Source: Octopus vulgaris
Taxonomy: Eukaryota
NCBI GenBank assembly: GCA_951406725.2
Contig: OX597824.1
Span: 83,638,001-83,702,000, forward strand
Reading direction: 5' to 3'
Length of the DNA: 64,000 nt
Positions 15,981-61,902 of the stretch are shown here, piece by piece. The notes under the pieces were generated by a model. The model did no database searches and was not told the origin of the DNA. It was given only the letters and a program-made list of their open reading frames with translations. A program made the position numbers and the translations under genes. Every line of letters starts with the position of its first letter. The first letter of the stretch is position 1.

Positions 15981-17739
15981 GTCTAGGATACACTTTATCT
16001 GAAAGAAAATGACGGGACGATCATGGGTGGGACGCTTTTGATCATAGGTGCACTTGATCAAGGCTGACCTGCAGTTAAACAACAACAACAACAACAACAA
16101 CAACCAATATTGTTGCTGTACAAAACACACTCAGTTAAATAGCCTCTATATAACCACTCAGCCTGCGAGGAATAGCAAGCAAATAACTTTTAAATAGAAG
16201 CCTAACTTCTTAAGCAAGTGAAGGACAGATTGGATAATGTAACTCTAGGCATTCCATGAAGTGGTCATGGCTGGAATGCCTTTGATTATAGGCTTTTCAG
16301 TCAGGCTTGATGTGATACTCTTGATAATACTAAAGACATTTGCTCATTCATGGTTACTCCCAATGTCACTGATGATGTCATTCTTTTAAACATACTCAAT
16401 CGCTCATATATGGATACTCACTCGATCTATTGCACTAGTTCATAAGATAGATATCCTTATTTAGAGAGGGTTCCTCTCAATGTTCTTCTTAATCCTTTGA
16501 GATCCACAAAATCAACTTTGGTGTCACACTCTGCAATAATAAGTGGATGAGAAGTAAATTTCCACTAGGATAGGATTCTAGTTTATTGCAAATAAAAGAT
16601 TTAGATTCAGTGTATTTCCATCAACATATAAGGGAGATCTAAGATGGTCTGTGTAACAATGTGAGCTACTCAGTGAATAGACACAAAGGCTCCCTCATTA
16701 CTTCATGCGGTCCCCATTTTAGAGACTAATTTTCCTTAGCTTTGCTGCAATTCCCGTTGAATTATCAGGTACTGCTGCTACAATAGTAATACATACTCAT
16801 GAAATAATCTTAAAAGCAAAAAAAAAAAACGAAAAAGAAAAGTATGCTTTCCTGTTCATATGGCTGCTTATTTAATAACTACGAAACACAGATTTACTAC
16901 TCCTACTACTTTTTATTGATGCTAATATAAAAGTAACTAACTAACCATATTGATAAAAAAAAAAAAGAAAAAAATTGTGGGAACCTGTCGTAGACATCTG
17001 TGCATGTGAATGTGGGTTTATGTTTATTGATGTGAAAGGGTGTTGAGTTGTGACCCTTTACCTCACAGTTAACTTAGCTATTTTGGTAAATGAATATTGA
17101 TAAGGTAAGTAGCAGACTATAAATCCTGAAAGAAGGTGCTCCAGCATGTATCCATGCTAGGTATCATCTTTATGAGGCTGTCATCTTTAATGACCGAAAC
17201 TTGTAACAGTAAAAGAGATATGCATGTGCATACGAATATATATATATATATATACATACATATATACATACATATATACATACATGCATTTATATTCCCT
17301 AATACATACATATATGTATATATTGTCTAAGAATCTATAGGTCAGTAAAAATACGCACTCATATATTTGTCAATGGAGTAGGTATATTAATTGAAGTGTA
17401 CAGTATTATATATCCATTACAACCATAACTGCCATCTCTGAAGAGCGCAGGGTTACATAACTGTGCTGTTACTTAACACTCCGTTGTACCCCTAGCACGA
17501 AACTGATTGGTAAGATCGGCTGTATTGGATATGTAATTCTGTGCACTTTGACTAATTGACATATATGTATATATGTGTGTGTACATGTACATACGCACAC
17601 ATATGCATGCATGCATGGACACACGCATACACATAGAATCATGAGTTATGGCATGGTGGAAATTTTCAAAGACCTATTACTTCTTCAGTCAACAAAAAGA
17701 TTGTATTGATGAATGAAGAGTAATTTGTGTAATTCTTGT

Positions 17740-53407: not shown

Positions 53408-54186
53408 GGTCAAACTAAAGGGTTTGATCCGAGCAAAAGAAAAAAATAGTGCAATAGGTGTAAAATAGTGTGTAGTAAACGAATATGAAAAAAAAAAATG
53501 GATGCTGGCGAACAGGGTGCAGGGGAGAGGTCTCAGAAAATTCCCATCGGGAATGTTCCGAGTCCTTTCACCACTTTCCTGTTCGTCAGAAAAAATTTTT
53601 TTTCTTCATATTCATTTACTACACATTATTTTACACCTAGTACACTATTTTTTTTTTCAATTTTTGTGTTGGGGTGGAGTGTGGACTCGGATAATTCACA
53701 CGATCCAGTAACTCAGGTCAAACACTGGAGTTTAAAGGTCAAGGCCTGAATTTTCCGAGTCCTCTCTTTGCACCCCTCCATTTGCCAGTGCGCCTTTTTT
53801 TTCATATTTGTTTGCTACATGTTGTTTTACACCTATTACACTATGTTTTTTTTTTCATTTTTGTGACTGAGTGTCAAAGTGGGTTTACTGGATTGTGTGA
53901 ATTATCCGAGTCCACACCCCACCCACCCCCATCACAAAAATTGAAAAAGAAATAGTGTACTAGGTGTAAAATAATGTGTAGTAGACGAATATGAAGAAAA
54001 ACAAATTTCACTGACAGACGGAAAAGTGGTGTGGGAACTTGGAACATTCCTGATGTGAATTTTCCAAGTCCTCTCACCTGCACCCCATTTACCAGTACGC
54101 ATTGTTTTTTCATATTTGTTTGCTACATGTTGTACACCTATTGCACTATTTTTTTTTTGCTTGGGTCAAACACTTTAGTTTTTACC
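53408..54186. mobile_element. Long foldback element with arms of about 300 bp and internal subrepeats
   Basis: GGTCAAACTAAAGGGTTTGATCCGAGCAAAA mirrored by TTTTGCTTGGGTCAAACACTTTAGTTTTTACC; GGACTCGGATAATTCACAC mirrored by GTGTGAATTATCCGAGTCC. Confidence 0.85.
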
Positions 54187-54551: not shown

Positions 54552-54990
54552 CATCATCATCATCATTGTTCGACTATGGTCGAGACAATGGAATTTACCA
54601 TGCTATGCCAGACCTCACAGTCCATCATAGCATTACGGAGGTCCTGTTGCTGGATGCCTGTATCCCTGGAGATTACATCAGGGTAGGAGAGTGTGCGCTG
54701 TCTGGTATCGTGAGTAGATGGCTTCCAGAAGAGAAGAGTAGAAATTACCTCGTTTTCAGCTCTACAACAATGTCCAGCAAACTGGACTCTTCTACCTTTC
54801 ACAAGAGATGATTTATGGTAGTTTCCCATATATTTGCATTTTGGTTGGATGACGCTTCCACGAGAGATTTTGAGCTCTCATACGGAGGTGAGTGTAAGTT
54901 CCATCTAACCGCCTCTCAAGCGTCTTTGATAACGTCCAGGTTTCTGAGCCATATAGTAGAATTGGTTCGACTGTGGCTTTGAAGATTTGC
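54552..54990 (-). mobile_element. RTE LINE 3' fragment, second copy
   Basis: Same family as 36345-36868; ...SIVSTIVEQ* then (TGA)n. Confidence 0.9.
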
Positions 54991-55229
54991 CATAGGGATC
55001 AGCACTTTAGGATGGCTGCCAGCCCTTTGACCGATTTTGTCTTTTCATCCCACAGAGGGTTCAAAAACTACCCTCCTATTTTTGCATTTCTAATTTTGGA
55101 AGCCCTGTAGAAATATAGGTACCATTACCCGTCCTCCTCTGACTAAGCTATTGAATAATGAAATGATCCCCATGCTCTTTTAGAAACCTCCAAACTAATG
55201 CAATTCATTTTCTTTCTTTCTTCCACTAG

Positions 55230-55578
55230 TTAAAAGATATTTTGGTACGGACCATCAATGACTGGATATCCCTGTTTGACGAAGACAACTTAAAGTACCT
55301 GCCTCTCCTGAAAATGGAACTGACGTTTGATGATGAGAAAATGCAGTTCTACCCACCATCCGGTGATTTAGAAGAGAGTTTGATTTATGTTGTCGAAACG
55401 ATATGCAACACTCTGCAGAAGATACCTACAGTTCAGTGCTGGCTGGCTGAATCCCAAAGCAGCAATGAATATATTGATGCCACCGTTGCAGACCACATCG
55501 TTCAGAATGCCAAAAGCCAACTCCAGAAGGCTGTTGATAGGAATTTCCATGATCCTCAAAACCAACTTCAGTCTTTCG
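55230..55578 (+). CDS. DNAH12: DNAH12-like coding exon 9
   Basis: Acceptor TTCTTCCACTAG; LKDILVRTINDWISLFD...LPLLKMELTFDDEKMQFYP versus LKDLLRRTV...LPIFKIELTFDDDKMEFYP; donor GTCAGT (phase 1). Confidence 0.96.
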
Positions 55579-55733
55579 GTCAGTGCTCTTATATTTACAT
55601 GTTTTTCATGTTTAATTCAATCTGATCTCATTTATGCACTAGTCAGAAAAGAAGAGGTAGTACCCATGGACCTTATTTTTCTTTTAGGTCCTCCTGAATG
55701 ATGATGAGAAAGGGAAGGAATCAGAGGATATTG

Positions 55734-57095: not shown

Positions 57096-57126
<31 letters not shown>

Positions 57127-57137
57127 GTATATATATG

Positions 57138-57168
<31 letters not shown>

Positions 57169-57286
57169 GTGTATATATATATATATACTAAGTACATCCG
57201 ACTCACTAGAAAGAGCAGCTAAACTCCAAACCACTAATAGTTGTAATTCTGAAATGAAAAGAGAAATAGAAATGTTTACCCTCTCG

Positions 57287-57379
57287 TTTCTGGACTATGC
57301 ATAGTTTCGGCAATCTTTTGCAAATAAATTAAATTAAATTAAATTTATTTACCACTGGCGTTGCACTCATCAGCAGAAA
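57287..57379 (-). ncRNA. Type I hammerhead ribozyme motif, copy 1
   Basis: Minus strand TTTCTG-CTGATGA-G...C-GAAA-CTATGCATA-GTC-CAGAAA: stem I 6 bp, intact core, stem III with GUC triplet. Confidence 0.82.
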
Positions 57380-57751
57380 AGCCAAGGACTACCATATATT
57401 CACGAGGCGATAACGAGAATGCCTCGAGTCTATATGCTATAAATTTTCAAAATCCACAGCATTCGCACGGTTTTCTCAGCAGTAAATATAAACTGCCGAT
57501 TTAATTTCAAAATTAGCCAAAAAATCATTAATTAATAAATTTTAGGGTAGCAAAAAATTCTAGAAAAATTCTCCGCTACCAGCGGTCAAGTGAGAAAGAA
57601 AAATAGTCAATAGACTATATAATATACATTCAAACATATAAGGGATGGCTATAATAGGACATCCGACACACTAGAAAGAGCAGCTAAACTGCAAACCACT
57701 AATAGTTGTAATTCTGAAATGGAAAGAGAAATAGAAACGTTTACCCTCTCG

Positions 57752-57844
57752 TTTCTGGACTATGCATAGTTTCGGCAATCTTTTGCAAATAAATAAAATA
57801 AAATAAAATTTATTTACCACTGGCATTGAACTCATCAGCAGAAA
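57752..57844 (-). ncRNA. Type I hammerhead ribozyme motif, copy 2
   Basis: Same core, stem I and stem III, exactly 465 nt from copy 1. Confidence 0.8.
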
Positions 57845-58166
57845 AGCCAAGGACTACCATATATTCACGAGGCGATAACGAGCATGTCTCGAGTCTATAT
57901 GCTATAAATTTTTAAAATCCACCACATTCGCGCGGTTTTCTCAGCAGTAAATATAAACTGTCGATTTAATTTCAAAATTAGCCAAAAAATCATTAATTAA
58001 TAAATTTTAAGGTAATTAATTATTTTTTGGCTAATTTTGAAATTAAATCGGCAGTTTATATTTACTGCTGAGAAAACCGCACGAATGCGGTGGATTTTGA
58101 AAATTTATAGCATATAGACTCGAGACATGCTCGTTATCGCTCGTGAATATATGGTAGTCCTTGGCT

Positions 58167-58259
58167 TTTTTGCTGATGAGTTCAATGCCTGTGGTAAAGA
58201 AATTTAATTTAATTTAATTTATTTGCAAAAGAATGCCGAAACTATGCATAGTCCAGAAA
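58167..58259 (+). ncRNA. Type I hammerhead ribozyme motif, copy 3 (sense to the dynein pre-mRNA)
   Basis: TTTTTG-CTGATGA(58173-58179)-G...C-GAAA(58238-58241)-CTATGCATA-GTC(58251-58253)-CAGAAA; one G-U pair in stem I. Confidence 0.75.
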
Positions 58260-58624
58260 CAAGAGGGTAAACATTTCTATTTCTCTTTCCATTTCAGAAT
58301 TACAACTATTAGTGGTTTGCAGTTTAGCTGCTCTTTCTAGTGAGTCGGATGTCCTATTATAGCCATCCCTTATATGTTTGAATGTATATTATATAGTCTA
58401 TTGACTATCTTTTCTTTCTCACTTGACCGCTGGTAGCGGAGAATTTTTCTAGAATTTTTTGCTACCCTAAAATTTATTAATATATATATATACATATACA
58501 TATACATATATATACATATATATATACATATATATGTATATATGCACACACACACACATAGGGATGAACTGACAGATGGTCAGATGATATGTATACTGAT
58601 GCACAATATATGTCCCTTTTGTAG

Positions 58625-58716
58625 TGGATGAATATGGTTATATGGTTGATGGATCAGCTTCTGTGCAAATTGAGAAATTCATTAGTGAAGACCGAAGTTT
58701 TGAAGAATACATCGAG
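58625..58716 (+). CDS. DNAH12: DNAH12-like coding exon 10 (gene continues past the window)
   Basis: Acceptor CCCTTTTGTAG; VDEYGYMVDGSASVQIEKFISEDRSFEEYIE versus VEKYNWLLDGTAVENIETFQTEDHTFDEYTE; donor GTAAGT. Confidence 0.94.
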
Positions 58717-60569
58717 GTAAGTTGTACAAGACGAATCTTTTACCTGAATTCTTGTTACTATCATCAGCTGCCATCAATCTTTGAATTCCCCTGTACATCT
58801 CTTGCATCCATTTCACATTATTGTTCACAATTTTAACTCATTCATGTTCTGAAAACTCAACTTCTTTATACCTTAACTTTCTACAAGGTCTTTCATTCAA
58901 TCCCGAAATAGTTGAAAGCATTTTTGATTCAAGTAGATTGCATATCTCTGCCTGACACTGAATCAGTTTTTGTCATATTGATTTTTGGTATTCACTTGAA
59001 AGGTCTTTGTTAGGGCTGTATCCCAGTTACTGGAACTAAAAGAGGGAACTACAACTTGGCTATTCTATTGTCTAATGGCAGTTGAGTAGAAAATTTAGTT
59101 CATTCTTTCACTGATTTCTTTCATTAGATTTCAGCAATGCTGTGACATTTCTTTTGAGGGTTTTTGTCCTTTGTATTGATCCTTAATATTTATTGTAAGC
59201 TGGGTTACCTTTTTGACATAGAACGATGCAGATTAATTCATCTCAGACTGGTGTACACTGGCATACACAAAAACAGTCACATACTTACGTACCCATATGT
59301 TTACACTCATATGCATACGCACACATACATGCATACACACACACTCACACACATATACATACATATATATATATCACCACCACCATCATCATCATCATCA
59401 TCATTTAATATCCATTCTCCATGCTGGCATGGGTTGGACAGTTTAACCAGAAGTGGTAAACTGAGGGGCTGCACCAGACTCCAGTCTTATTTGGCATAGT
59501 TTGTATAGCTGGATGTCCTTCCTAATACACACACACAACACACACACACACACACACACACACAAGTTATATTTAAAATTAAAGCTGTATAATTAAAGTA
59601 TATGTTTGTGTACGTGTGTGTCTATGTGTGTACATTGATACCTGTGTGTGTATACATTTATATATGTATATATATGTATCTATAAATACATACATACATA
59701 CATACATATGTATGTATGGATGTGTATGTATATATATATATGTGCATGTGAATGTCTGCATTCTCTCTCGTTGCTCACATATGACCATTGTCCATCTTTC
59801 TTTTCCTACACGACTTTCTAAGGAGTAGATGTCTTCTATCTTTTCTCTTTTCAAAGAAAATATTTCTCCCAGCATTCACTATTTTCCTCTCATCCTGGTC
59901 TATCAACCCTCCATGTGAATATATATGATTATGTCCAGCCTGTGTGAATATATGTGATTATGTCCAACTTGTATATACCAGATGTTTTAATGAATAGATT
60001 TATCGATCAATTCCGATATTGGATTGCATAGAGATTATGGATCAGTTGTCACATCAAATGCTGTTGGGTCCTTGTTACACAGATTTAGGGATAACTTCCT
60101 AAGCTTAAAAGTGATCATCACTGTTGACCTAAAAATTGCAACTGCTTAGATCATCATCATCATCATGAATTAGCATCTGCTTTCCATGCTGGTATGGGTT
60201 AGATGGTTTGAATGACACTGGTAAGCTGGAGAGCTGCACCAGGTCCCAATTTGATTTGGCATGGCTTCTATGACTGGATGCCCTTCCTAACACCAACCAC
60301 TCCAAGAATGTAATGGTTGCTTTTTACATACCACCAGTACAGGTGCCAGTTTATGTGACACCAGCATCAGCCATGACTACGATTTCACTTGTCTTGACAG
60401 GTCTTTTCAAGCACAGCATATTGCCAAAGATCTTGGTCACTTATCATTCATTGCTTCTGTGTGGGCCCAATGTCCAGAGGGTGCTTTTTACATGACACCA
60501 GCATTGGCCATGACTACGATTTCACTAGGCTTCACAGGCCTAGATACTGACTCAAATACACCTACAACT

Positions 60570-60885
60570 AACTAATTGACCTACGTTAACTACATGTTTT
60601 GTCACCCAACCATAGATTTCAAAAATCTAGTCAACAACCTCAGCAGAAGGATCTCAAACCTCTCTTCTATCAAAGAGATTTTTGATTGAACCATTTCATA
60701 TTACAGTAGTCCTTCTGTAAATAGTGGTGTCAAAGACAAATCTCTGCATGTGCCTAACCACCGTTTCCCAAATAAGAACAGGCCCCGCTATCCTATCATG
60801 TTCACATCCCCATACTCATTGGATGTAAAAACCAACATAGCCCAAATCTTCCTAGCACTAGTAGATAAGCATTTTTATGACTGTC
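60570..60885 (+). mobile_element. Penelope-like element ORF relic (RT thumb / linker)
   Basis: YVNYMFCHPTIDFKNLVNNLSRRISNLSSIKEIF and KNRPRYPIMFTSPYSLDVKTNIAQIFLALVDKHF resemble PLE motifs HPP...RLS.LSS and WFNPPFS..V.TNIGK.FL.LIDKHF. Confidence 0.8.
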
Positions 60886-60911
60886 ACCACTACATGAAAA
60901 AAATTTCAACA

Positions 60912-61330
60912 GGCGCAGGAGTGGCTGTGTGGTAAGTAGCTTGCTTACCAACCACATGGATCCGGGTTCAGTCCCACTGCGTGGCATCTTGGGCAAGTGT
61001 CTTCTGCTATAGCCTTGGGCCGACCAATGTCTTGGGAGTGGATTTGGTAGACGGAAACTGAAAGAAGCCCGTCGTATATATGTATATATATATATGTATG
61101 TGTGTGTATATGTTTGTGTGTCTGTGTTTGTCCCCCTAGCATTGCTTGACGACCGATGCTGGTGTGTTTACGTCCCCGTCACTTAGCGGTTTAGCAAAAG
61201 AGACCGATAGAATAAGTACTAGGCTTACAAAGAATAAGTCCTGGGGTCGATTTGCTCGACTAAAGGCGGTGCTCCAGCATGGCCGCAGTCAAATGACTGA
61301 AACAAGTAAAAGAGTAAAAGAGTATAAAAG
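60912..61330 (+). mobile_element. SINE family A, full length
   Basis: Matches 7293-7700. Confidence 0.9.
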
Positions 61331-61902
61331 AGATGTTTGAAAGTGAATAATGTTGCACTTGTGAAATGAAAACCATCTTAATATACAAATGGTGAAGACC
61401 ATAGAAACAAGATGCCTTAACAAAGACACTGAAGCATGTACACTGAACTTACTTTCTAACACCAAGTCTTTAGCATACAAAGTCATACTTACCTCTACTA
61501 ATTCAAATGGGTCAATCAATAGTAAACATTACATAGGAATGGTAGAGGGCAAGTTCAAGCAATGATACTCCAGCCAAAGTACTTCCTTCAGGCATATTGA
61601 TAAGAGTAAGAACAACACTGCTATCTAATTACAATTGGCAGCTGAATAAAAACATCAATTATTAAATAAAATGGAAAATGCTGGAGCTGATGTCGCTTAT
61701 GCACTGTAAAGAAGCATATTATATTAAAAATCCTTAATGGTCCTGTAATGTATTTTGATACAAGGTAAGAGATTTTTGGCTGGAGTTCTGGATTCAGTAC
61801 CACTGCATGGCACCTTTGGCAAATGTCTTCTAGTATAATCCCAGACTGACCAAAGGCTTGTGAGTGGGTCTATTAATAGGAAACTAAAAGAAGCTCATCA
61901 AG

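Follow-up and report, generated by a model that had tools for sequence, protein, structure and literature searches.

Animal non-LTR retrozymes, as described (PMC7229834; 10.64898/2026.07.22.740005), are non-coding repeats of a few hundred bases with a GC content below 45%, in which each unit of the tandem copies carries one type I hammerhead with a palindromic stem III; they co-occur with Penelope-like elements (PLEs), and their mobilisation by PLEs has been proposed. We found the same combination of features in a repeat located in a 64,000-nucleotide stretch of Octopus vulgaris DNA (the window, to whose positions all unlabelled coordinates refer), and it belongs to a dispersed family with a 465-nt unit. 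In contrast with the retrozymes of these accounts, the octopus family consists mostly of dispersed arms of less than two units and not of arrays, its stem III is longer (4 bp plus a 4-nt loop), its loop II holds an extra AT-rich hairpin, and its insertions clearly target TA, have their 3' ends fixed at two sites and come with inverted arms in pairs. Whereas 24 of 57 described Xenopus retrozyme families match Repbase TEs, nearly all of them PLEs, no pLTR homologue was found for the 465-nt family; likewise, circles are known from animal retrozymes, whereas this family is known here from its DNA. The evidence on the retrozyme life cycle is limited according to Li et al. (10.64898/2026.07.22.740005), in whose account only one of nine Xenopus retrozyme dimers cleaved in vitro. 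Palindromic helix III, in turn, has been described as a sign of dimeric cleavage (PMC4209133).

The EN+ Neptune-type PLEs, as described (PMC8557442, PMC11167929), resemble the 465-nt family in forming partial tandems with an inverted, 5'-truncated copy at the 5' end, in having a 'tail' at one end only with the hammerhead upstream of two RT starts, and in using AT-rich or microsatellite targets, and differ from it in that the family has no ORF. The tail spans about 90 nt in the family, compared with about 71-73 nt in two local PLE families (B and D, below) and 30-40 nt in the published PLEs. A zinc-finger linker is given as typical of Neptune elements, and Craig et al. called the formation of PLE inverted insertions open (PMC8557442). 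For PAc, AT-rich DNA is cut and extended on both strands by the purified protein, whose RT begins at either of two internal sites lying downstream of the ribozyme; these sites define the genomic 'tail'. The ribozyme is dispensable for insertion in vitro, where unprocessed RNA is used, and no RNA-seq reads ended at the cut (PMC11167929). Non-autonomous Chlamys PLEs such as MRC1 (PMC8557442) are comparable with the family as non-autonomous PLE derivatives and have pLTRs and head-to-tail insertions; however, those described share 3' sequence with an autonomous family, whereas no sequence partner was found for the 465-nt family, and most of them lack hammerheads, whereas the hammerhead is conserved in the octopus family. 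The retrozyme class, its proposed link to PLEs and non-autonomous PLEs are thus already in print (PMC7229834, 10.64898/2026.07.22.740005, PMC8557442). A description of the 465-nt family itself was not found in the literature searched, and it may be catalogued in Repbase, Dfam or paper supplements, which lay outside that search.

A descriptor scan of the whole window for hammerheads with a 6-bp stem I revealed three type I hammerheads, with cores at 57373 (-), 57838 (-) and 58173 (+) and predicted cut residues (C17) at 57293, 57758 and 58253, all showing the CUGANGA, GAAA and NUH core in type I order together with stems I-III. One unrelated loose match was present at 17438, and no match, loose or strict, occurred in 40 dinucleotide shuffles of the window. 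The three hammerheads of the original prediction, a minus-strand pair spaced by 465 nt and a single inverted copy, are thus confirmed. The proposed hammerhead scan succeeded with the descriptor, whereas the Rfam hammerhead models at gathering thresholds gave no match in the window, for which the long loop II may account. According to the scan and folding, copy 1 (57287..57379, minus strand, predicted cut 3' of 57293) has a 6-bp stem I, CUGAUGA at 57373-57367, GAAA and a palindromic stem III, and all of its helices are intact, including a stem II with five of five pairs, a bulged U and a long loop hairpin. Copy 2 (57752..57844, minus strand), predicted to cut 3' of 57758, has lost one of its stem II pairs through a locus-private transversion, which is common to copy 3 (58167..58259, plus strand, predicted cut 3' of 58253), where two stem II pairs are broken; stem II, which the original prediction had not described, is therefore complete only in copy 1 among the three window copies. 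A 6-bp stem I occurs in all three, but the sequence TTTCTG/CAGAAA that had been ascribed to each unit does not hold for copy 3, which reads TTTTTG with a U.G pair.

The insertion occupies 57191-58480 with (TA)n tracts on both sides, which corrects the earlier limits of 57194..58481 while confirming the repeat. We numbered the unit in ribozyme sense, q1 being the first base 3' of the cut (57757). Unit alignment resolved two arms placed head to head, with a junction at about 58000-58013: a left arm of 1.77 units on the minus strand (57191..58012; q209-465, q1-465, q1-102) and an inverted arm of one unit on the plus strand (58013..58480; q214-465, q1-227). The 3' end of the left arm (q102) is atypical, lying about 30-40 nt short of family site 1, and that of the inverted arm coincides with family site 2 (q227) and is joined to (TA)n. 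A repeat scan of the window placed the flanking microsatellites, which are the probable insertion target, at 57096..57187 ((TA)n) and 58480..58543 ((TA)n-rich). The direct copies are spaced by 465 nt with 95% identity and the inverted arm is about 96% complementary, the window copies differing pairwise by about 1.5-7%. Some rare changes, including the stem II transversion, are common to the inverted arm and the adjoining part of the left arm, which fits fold-back copying, second-lap priming on a heterogeneous template or later conversion between the arms.

The predicted cut-to-cut monomer (57293..57757, minus strand) has 465 nt and 34% GC, and when folded as a circle it is more stable than shuffled sequences (z -3.5). 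As had been stated, the unit lacks a long ORF: the longest stop-free frame in the tandem is 60 aa, and neither the unit nor the passage from lap to lap contains an ORF. Every window copy has a fold of lower energy than the hammerhead, which lies 4.8, 7.9 and 18 kcal/mol above the minimum, and the modelled transcript of the whole insertion, in either direction, is one long hairpin in which the pairing probability of the ribozyme stems is 0-0.13. Since stem II is damaged in two of the three ribozymes and the full transcript folds as a long hairpin, this locus is probably a dead copy. A monomer running from 57757 down to 57293 therefore has the length that was originally predicted, but its production by this locus is unsupported, given the damaged copy 2 and the hairpin transcript, and any monomer likely comes from the family and not from this copy. 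Separately, a conserved pyrimidine tract ending in CAG, resembling a 3' splice site, lies just downstream of the cut (57714-57738, minus strand; unit q20-44). Introns are known within Penelope repeats, as far as described, and no splice joint at the acceptor-like AG of q44 was seen in 156 contigs of runs guessed to be RNA.

The insertion is probably intronic in a gene for an axonemal dynein heavy chain: a protein match revealed an exon at 55230..55600 (+; best match DNAH12, E 2e-20), and a further dynein exon was read by eye near 58654-58718, while Pfam did not recognize the dynein exons. The near-perfect inverted repeat of about 470 bp formed by 57191-58480 lies about 170 nt upstream of this probable exon and, in dynein pre-mRNA, would form an extended RNA duplex that A-to-I editing might act on. 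Elsewhere in the window, separate inverted and direct repeats at 53437-54110, with arms of 109 and 188 nt and about 80% complementarity, are possibly a hairpin-type element, and fragments at 54563-54998 (-), which gave no Pfam match, are presumably similar, as judged by eye, to the C-terminal part of an RTE-type LINE ORF. A Penelope-like ORF relic about 2 kb from the repeat, which the original prediction had linked to it, is real (60576..61619, plus strand, by protein comparison): it comprises an RT thumb (60576-60899) and a linker with a GIY-YIG part (61371-61619), split by another repeat, and is 33-45% identical to Penelope-like ORFs of the genome. However, the link fails, because the relic is decayed (its ORF carries stops) and interrupted, no other scored copy is more than 58% identical to it, and it lies beyond a TA tract and the probable host exon.

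To place the locus in its family, we searched the 2.8-Gb assembly, which yielded 2,397 first-look candidates, 40 of which were scored. Exact matches numbered 303 for a 22-mer at stem III and 1,002 for a 19-mer at q75-93, with none for the reversed controls, and were dispersed across many chromosomes. Judged from sequence, a 465-base non-coding repeat with a predicted hammerhead is present at at least 1,000 places in the genome, mostly TA microsatellites. The longest array seen had about three units, and two-ribozyme arms were found at the window and several other loci. One sister subfamily has a period of about 489 nt and is 72-76% identical over the alignable part; a further one has a period of about 430-440 nt. 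In an older subfamily (L156, L161, L168, L125, L126), the basal position of stem II has two facing A residues where G10.1-C11.1 is usual, and the rest of the core is kept. Further divergent sister subfamilies lie in or near TA tracts at the ends of family D elements (L230:8128-8681, L234:1407-2033), showing that targets are common to both. Another hammerhead with a long stem II was noted at L063:3227 (-), near a third Penelope-like ORF family, and had no blastn similarity to the 465-nt unit. In a check of RNA, restricted to assembled contigs from four runs guessed to be RNA, family-like pieces (85% likeness) from two organisms were present among 156 contigs; these showed no pile-up of ends, and back-going joints fit genomic tandems as well as circles.

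Conservation of the core and stems relative to the rest of the unit had been set in advance as a comparison that could refute the prediction, and the prediction survived it. In the BLAST-selected loci L001-L030, deviation from the commonest letter of a column was 0.6% in GAAA, 0.7% in stem III and 0% at the cut site, compared with 4.5-8.3% in the rest of the unit, and variation in CUGANGA was almost wholly at N7. Across 82 distinct ribozymes, N7 was C, A, T or G in 42, 20, 19 and 1 cases, respectively. Among 54 aligned copies, one stem I pair was U-A in 32 and C-G in 19, and stem cells were paired at 95.9%, as against 35-48% when partners were slid; some of these copies were chosen by their stem III motif, and the covariation counts related copies and not independent events. 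Sister subfamilies among these 82 ribozymes showed further paired replacements in stems I and III, with stem III still palindromic. Since stems I and III covary and only the free position N7 commonly varies in the core, the source elements kept the fold under selection, which supports selection on the hammerhead at the family level.

The insertion ends were similarly informative. Arms were taken from all but four of the places of the first 100 listed matches to the q75-93 motif, and in the resulting 107 arms, which retain a few segmental duplicates (removed from the later 5'-end and 115-locus counts), 3' ends fell at q130-149 in 60 and at q220-239 in 35, with ragged 5' ends. The true position of site 1 is about q130-136, because BLAST runs on into the TA tract; site 2 is at q227, and both canonical sites lie downstream of the cut. 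Four or more TA units were touched by 107 of 143 canonical-site 3' ends. At 115 loci pooled from the scored candidates and both exact-motif match sets, orientation was single at 60, head to head at 54 and otherwise at one. The two arms of a head-to-head locus used one site each in 35 of 37 scorable cases (expected 49%, p 3e-9); among all 54, two used site 2 twice and none used site 1 twice, and 17, the window locus among them, had at least one atypical end.

The same genome contains intact elements with comparable ends. Two very young Neptune-like families, with frames of 718 aa (family B) and 727 aa (family D), were found at L051:4310-6463 (-) and L226:2401-8009 (+) among many other places, and D frames occur in dozens of near-identical full-length copies, some in tandem 3.43 kb apart. 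Many open frames of 718-727 aa contain RT, zinc-finger-like linker and GIY-YIG-like motifs on by-eye reading, while Pfam gave no domain match for the PLE ORFs or for the Penelope relic. Both families have their own minimal-type hammerheads, which differ from that of the unit and are predicted to cut after GUA. Their TA-joined ends lie at about +21 and +92 from the cut in B and at +37 and +108-110 in D, and one end per arm was used at all eight D loci and at nine of 12 B loci in which both arms were measurable. By analogy, this anatomy of TA-joined two-site ends matches the reported behaviour of the PAc protein. Sequence comparison revealed no relationship with the unit: blastn against the B and D repeats gave no match, alignments of the stretch from q130-136 to q227 with B and D were not superior to those of shuffled sequence (108-531 of 1,000), and a short ACCACTGGTA motif common to the unit and family D was not significant. 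More generally, no ORF-bearing element with the unit as its repeat was seen in the flanks of 40 loci matched by the relic protein or in 64 PLE-ORF and related stretches, and by inspection the PLE fragments beside a few loci were separate insertions. The genome search that had been proposed thus yielded abundant copies, but no linkage of the unit to an RT/GIY-YIG ORF among the loci examined. A junction at L233:4105-5548 (-), in which a D-like ORF piece is joined to a 5'-truncated sister-subfamily copy, was considered as a template-switch chimera and rejected; its ORF part carries a frameshift and has 85-87% identity with the D-type copies compared, its repeat part is at most 96-98% identical to its sisters, and a nested insertion is more likely. 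Beside another Penelope fragment, an 831-aa frame with cadherin-like repeats (protocadherin-like, by eye) was noted at L064:518-3010 (-).

The repeat unit, with its 465-nt length, 34% GC, lack of coding capacity and type I hammerhead in tandem, bears out the class assignment originally made, and at the level of sequence the family is an animal non-LTR retrozyme as that class is defined. It also has the anatomy of a non-autonomous PLE, that is, fixed 3' ends, an optional tail, 5' truncation, an adjoining inverted copy and a microsatellite target, but neither pLTR similarity to an autonomous partner, in comparisons with families B and D and other PLE loci, nor the RT plus GIY-YIG ORF between repeats that marks an autonomous PLE. 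Because the insertion ends match those of intact PLEs, the family likely spreads by borrowing their enzymes, which supports the originally proposed mobilisation by a Penelope-like RT. We therefore favor, with a probability of roughly 0.55, the reading that the locus is a decayed insertion of a hammerhead retrozyme family that is likely copied into TA microsatellites by the RT/endonuclease of a Neptune-type PLE, likely from a self-cut, circularising monomer.

The shape of the template is the point on which a competing reading, possible although not the one we favor, departs from this. It assumes the same Penelope-dependent element but a linear template, either cut monomers or transcripts with terminal redundancy. 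Having reached the 5' end of one RNA, the RT would jump to the 3' end of another that matches it, the ribozyme would set RNA ends or act in regulation, and circles would be by-products or absent. Tandem laps within a locus differed in 5.5% of subfamily-diagnostic cells (31 pairs) as against 48.6% between loci (5,934 pairs), and this agreement implies that the tandem of each subfamily is rebuilt from one unit, which either a circle or a precise template jump would give. The 5' ends pile up just inside the cut, with 24 of 81 arms ending in q1-31 compared with four of 85 in q32-61 (p 2e-5) and eight of 57 over the 30 nt past the cut (p 0.04), and 10 of 22 long arms stop, by eye, at q1-38 of the second lap. 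Cut 5' ends can produce this excess, as a linear template would have it, and so can an RT held up by the ribozyme fold: the majority of the stops do not coincide with the cut but fall 5-30 nt short of it, where the folded ribozyme has its 3' edge, and on a circle RT stalling or fold-back is an equally good account of them. The aligned copies show no seam where they pass the cut, and the cut was crossed by 57 of 81 arms in the first lap and 12 of 22 in the second (the latter by eye, in a BLAST-selected set), a similar rate being what a circle predicts. The acceptance of unprocessed RNA by PAc in vitro (PMC11167929) and the partial tandems described for autonomous PLEs (PMC8557442) speak for linear RNA; however, coral, mussel and axolotl retrozymes are described as accumulating mainly as circles (PMC7229834), and it is mainly by this precedent that we consider a circular template slightly better than even.

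Two further readings deny the family a life of its own as a retrozyme. The copies might be pseudo-LTR remnants of an ORF-bearing Penelope family that was not found, moving only as its parts; 5'-truncated PLE insertions are described as often leaving the terminal repeat alone (10.64898/2026.07.22.740005), and about 150 loci of at least 1,000 were examined, the genome search scoring only the best candidates. We regard this as improbable, since in autonomous families B and D the ORF follows the two start sites, whereas many copies of the repeat run from q227 through q228-465 into the next ribozyme without an ORF, as also happens in the sister subfamilies of about 489 and 430-440 nt; moreover, the only ORF-adjacent copy, at L233, had no second junction of its kind among the 40 scored candidates. 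Very improbable, in our opinion, is a satellite or hairpin-type (MITE-like) DNA repeat that arose through duplication on the spot or through DNA transposition and resembles a hammerhead only by chance. Some DNA elements do show long inverted arms in TA tracts, as this insertion does. Local tandem growth has also been proposed for some retrozymes in the account of Li et al. (10.64898/2026.07.22.740005). However, the structure is polar, with fixed 3' and ragged 5' ends, orientation is single at 60 of 115 loci, arms have unequal ends, the copies are spread over many chromosomes and covariation preserves the ribozyme, so that the junction and covariation data already largely refute a satellite or MITE-like origin.

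Under the favored reading of a Penelope-mobilised retrozyme, a source copy with two intact ribozymes would be transcribed and its hammerheads, whose fold and selection are observed, would cut after GUC to release the monomer, probably with the help of two units that pair through their 12-nt palindromic stem III. A host ligase, as in other retrozymes, may close the monomer. The helper protein would then nick (TA)n and its RT would start at about q130-136 or q227 and, on reaching the cut site, continue into the previous lap before coming to a halt; for this step we observed that 3' ends are fixed, that 5' ends vary and that the cut is crossed without a seam. At about half of the loci a second arm on the other strand ends at the other site and completes the head-to-head inverted repeat, a pattern observed in the insertions and possibly produced by two-strand priming or fold-back copying. 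A bolder extension, which we find rather doubtful, would regard the family as part of an old clan of viroid-sized circular ribozyme RNAs, with subfamilies at least 25-30% apart and parentless, that parasitise Neptune-type proteins by RNA shape, and the inverted insertion as the product of a dimeric protein priming on both strands of a TA break from two sites on the circle.

Earlier arguments for a connection between PLEs and retrozymes relied on co-occurrence and pLTR similarity, whereas here the insertion junctions themselves carry a Penelope signature, and they are direct evidence of a retrozyme likely moved by Penelope machinery; this junction evidence is unusually clear. With such junctions and intact candidate helpers in the same genome, the link is directly testable. 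Any account of how inverted PLE insertions arise is sharply constrained by the use of one site per arm. If the bolder extension is true, the family and the intact helpers would be a ready pair for reconstituting retrozyme transposition, and it would explain how the tandems and inverted repeats of Penelope elements are formed.
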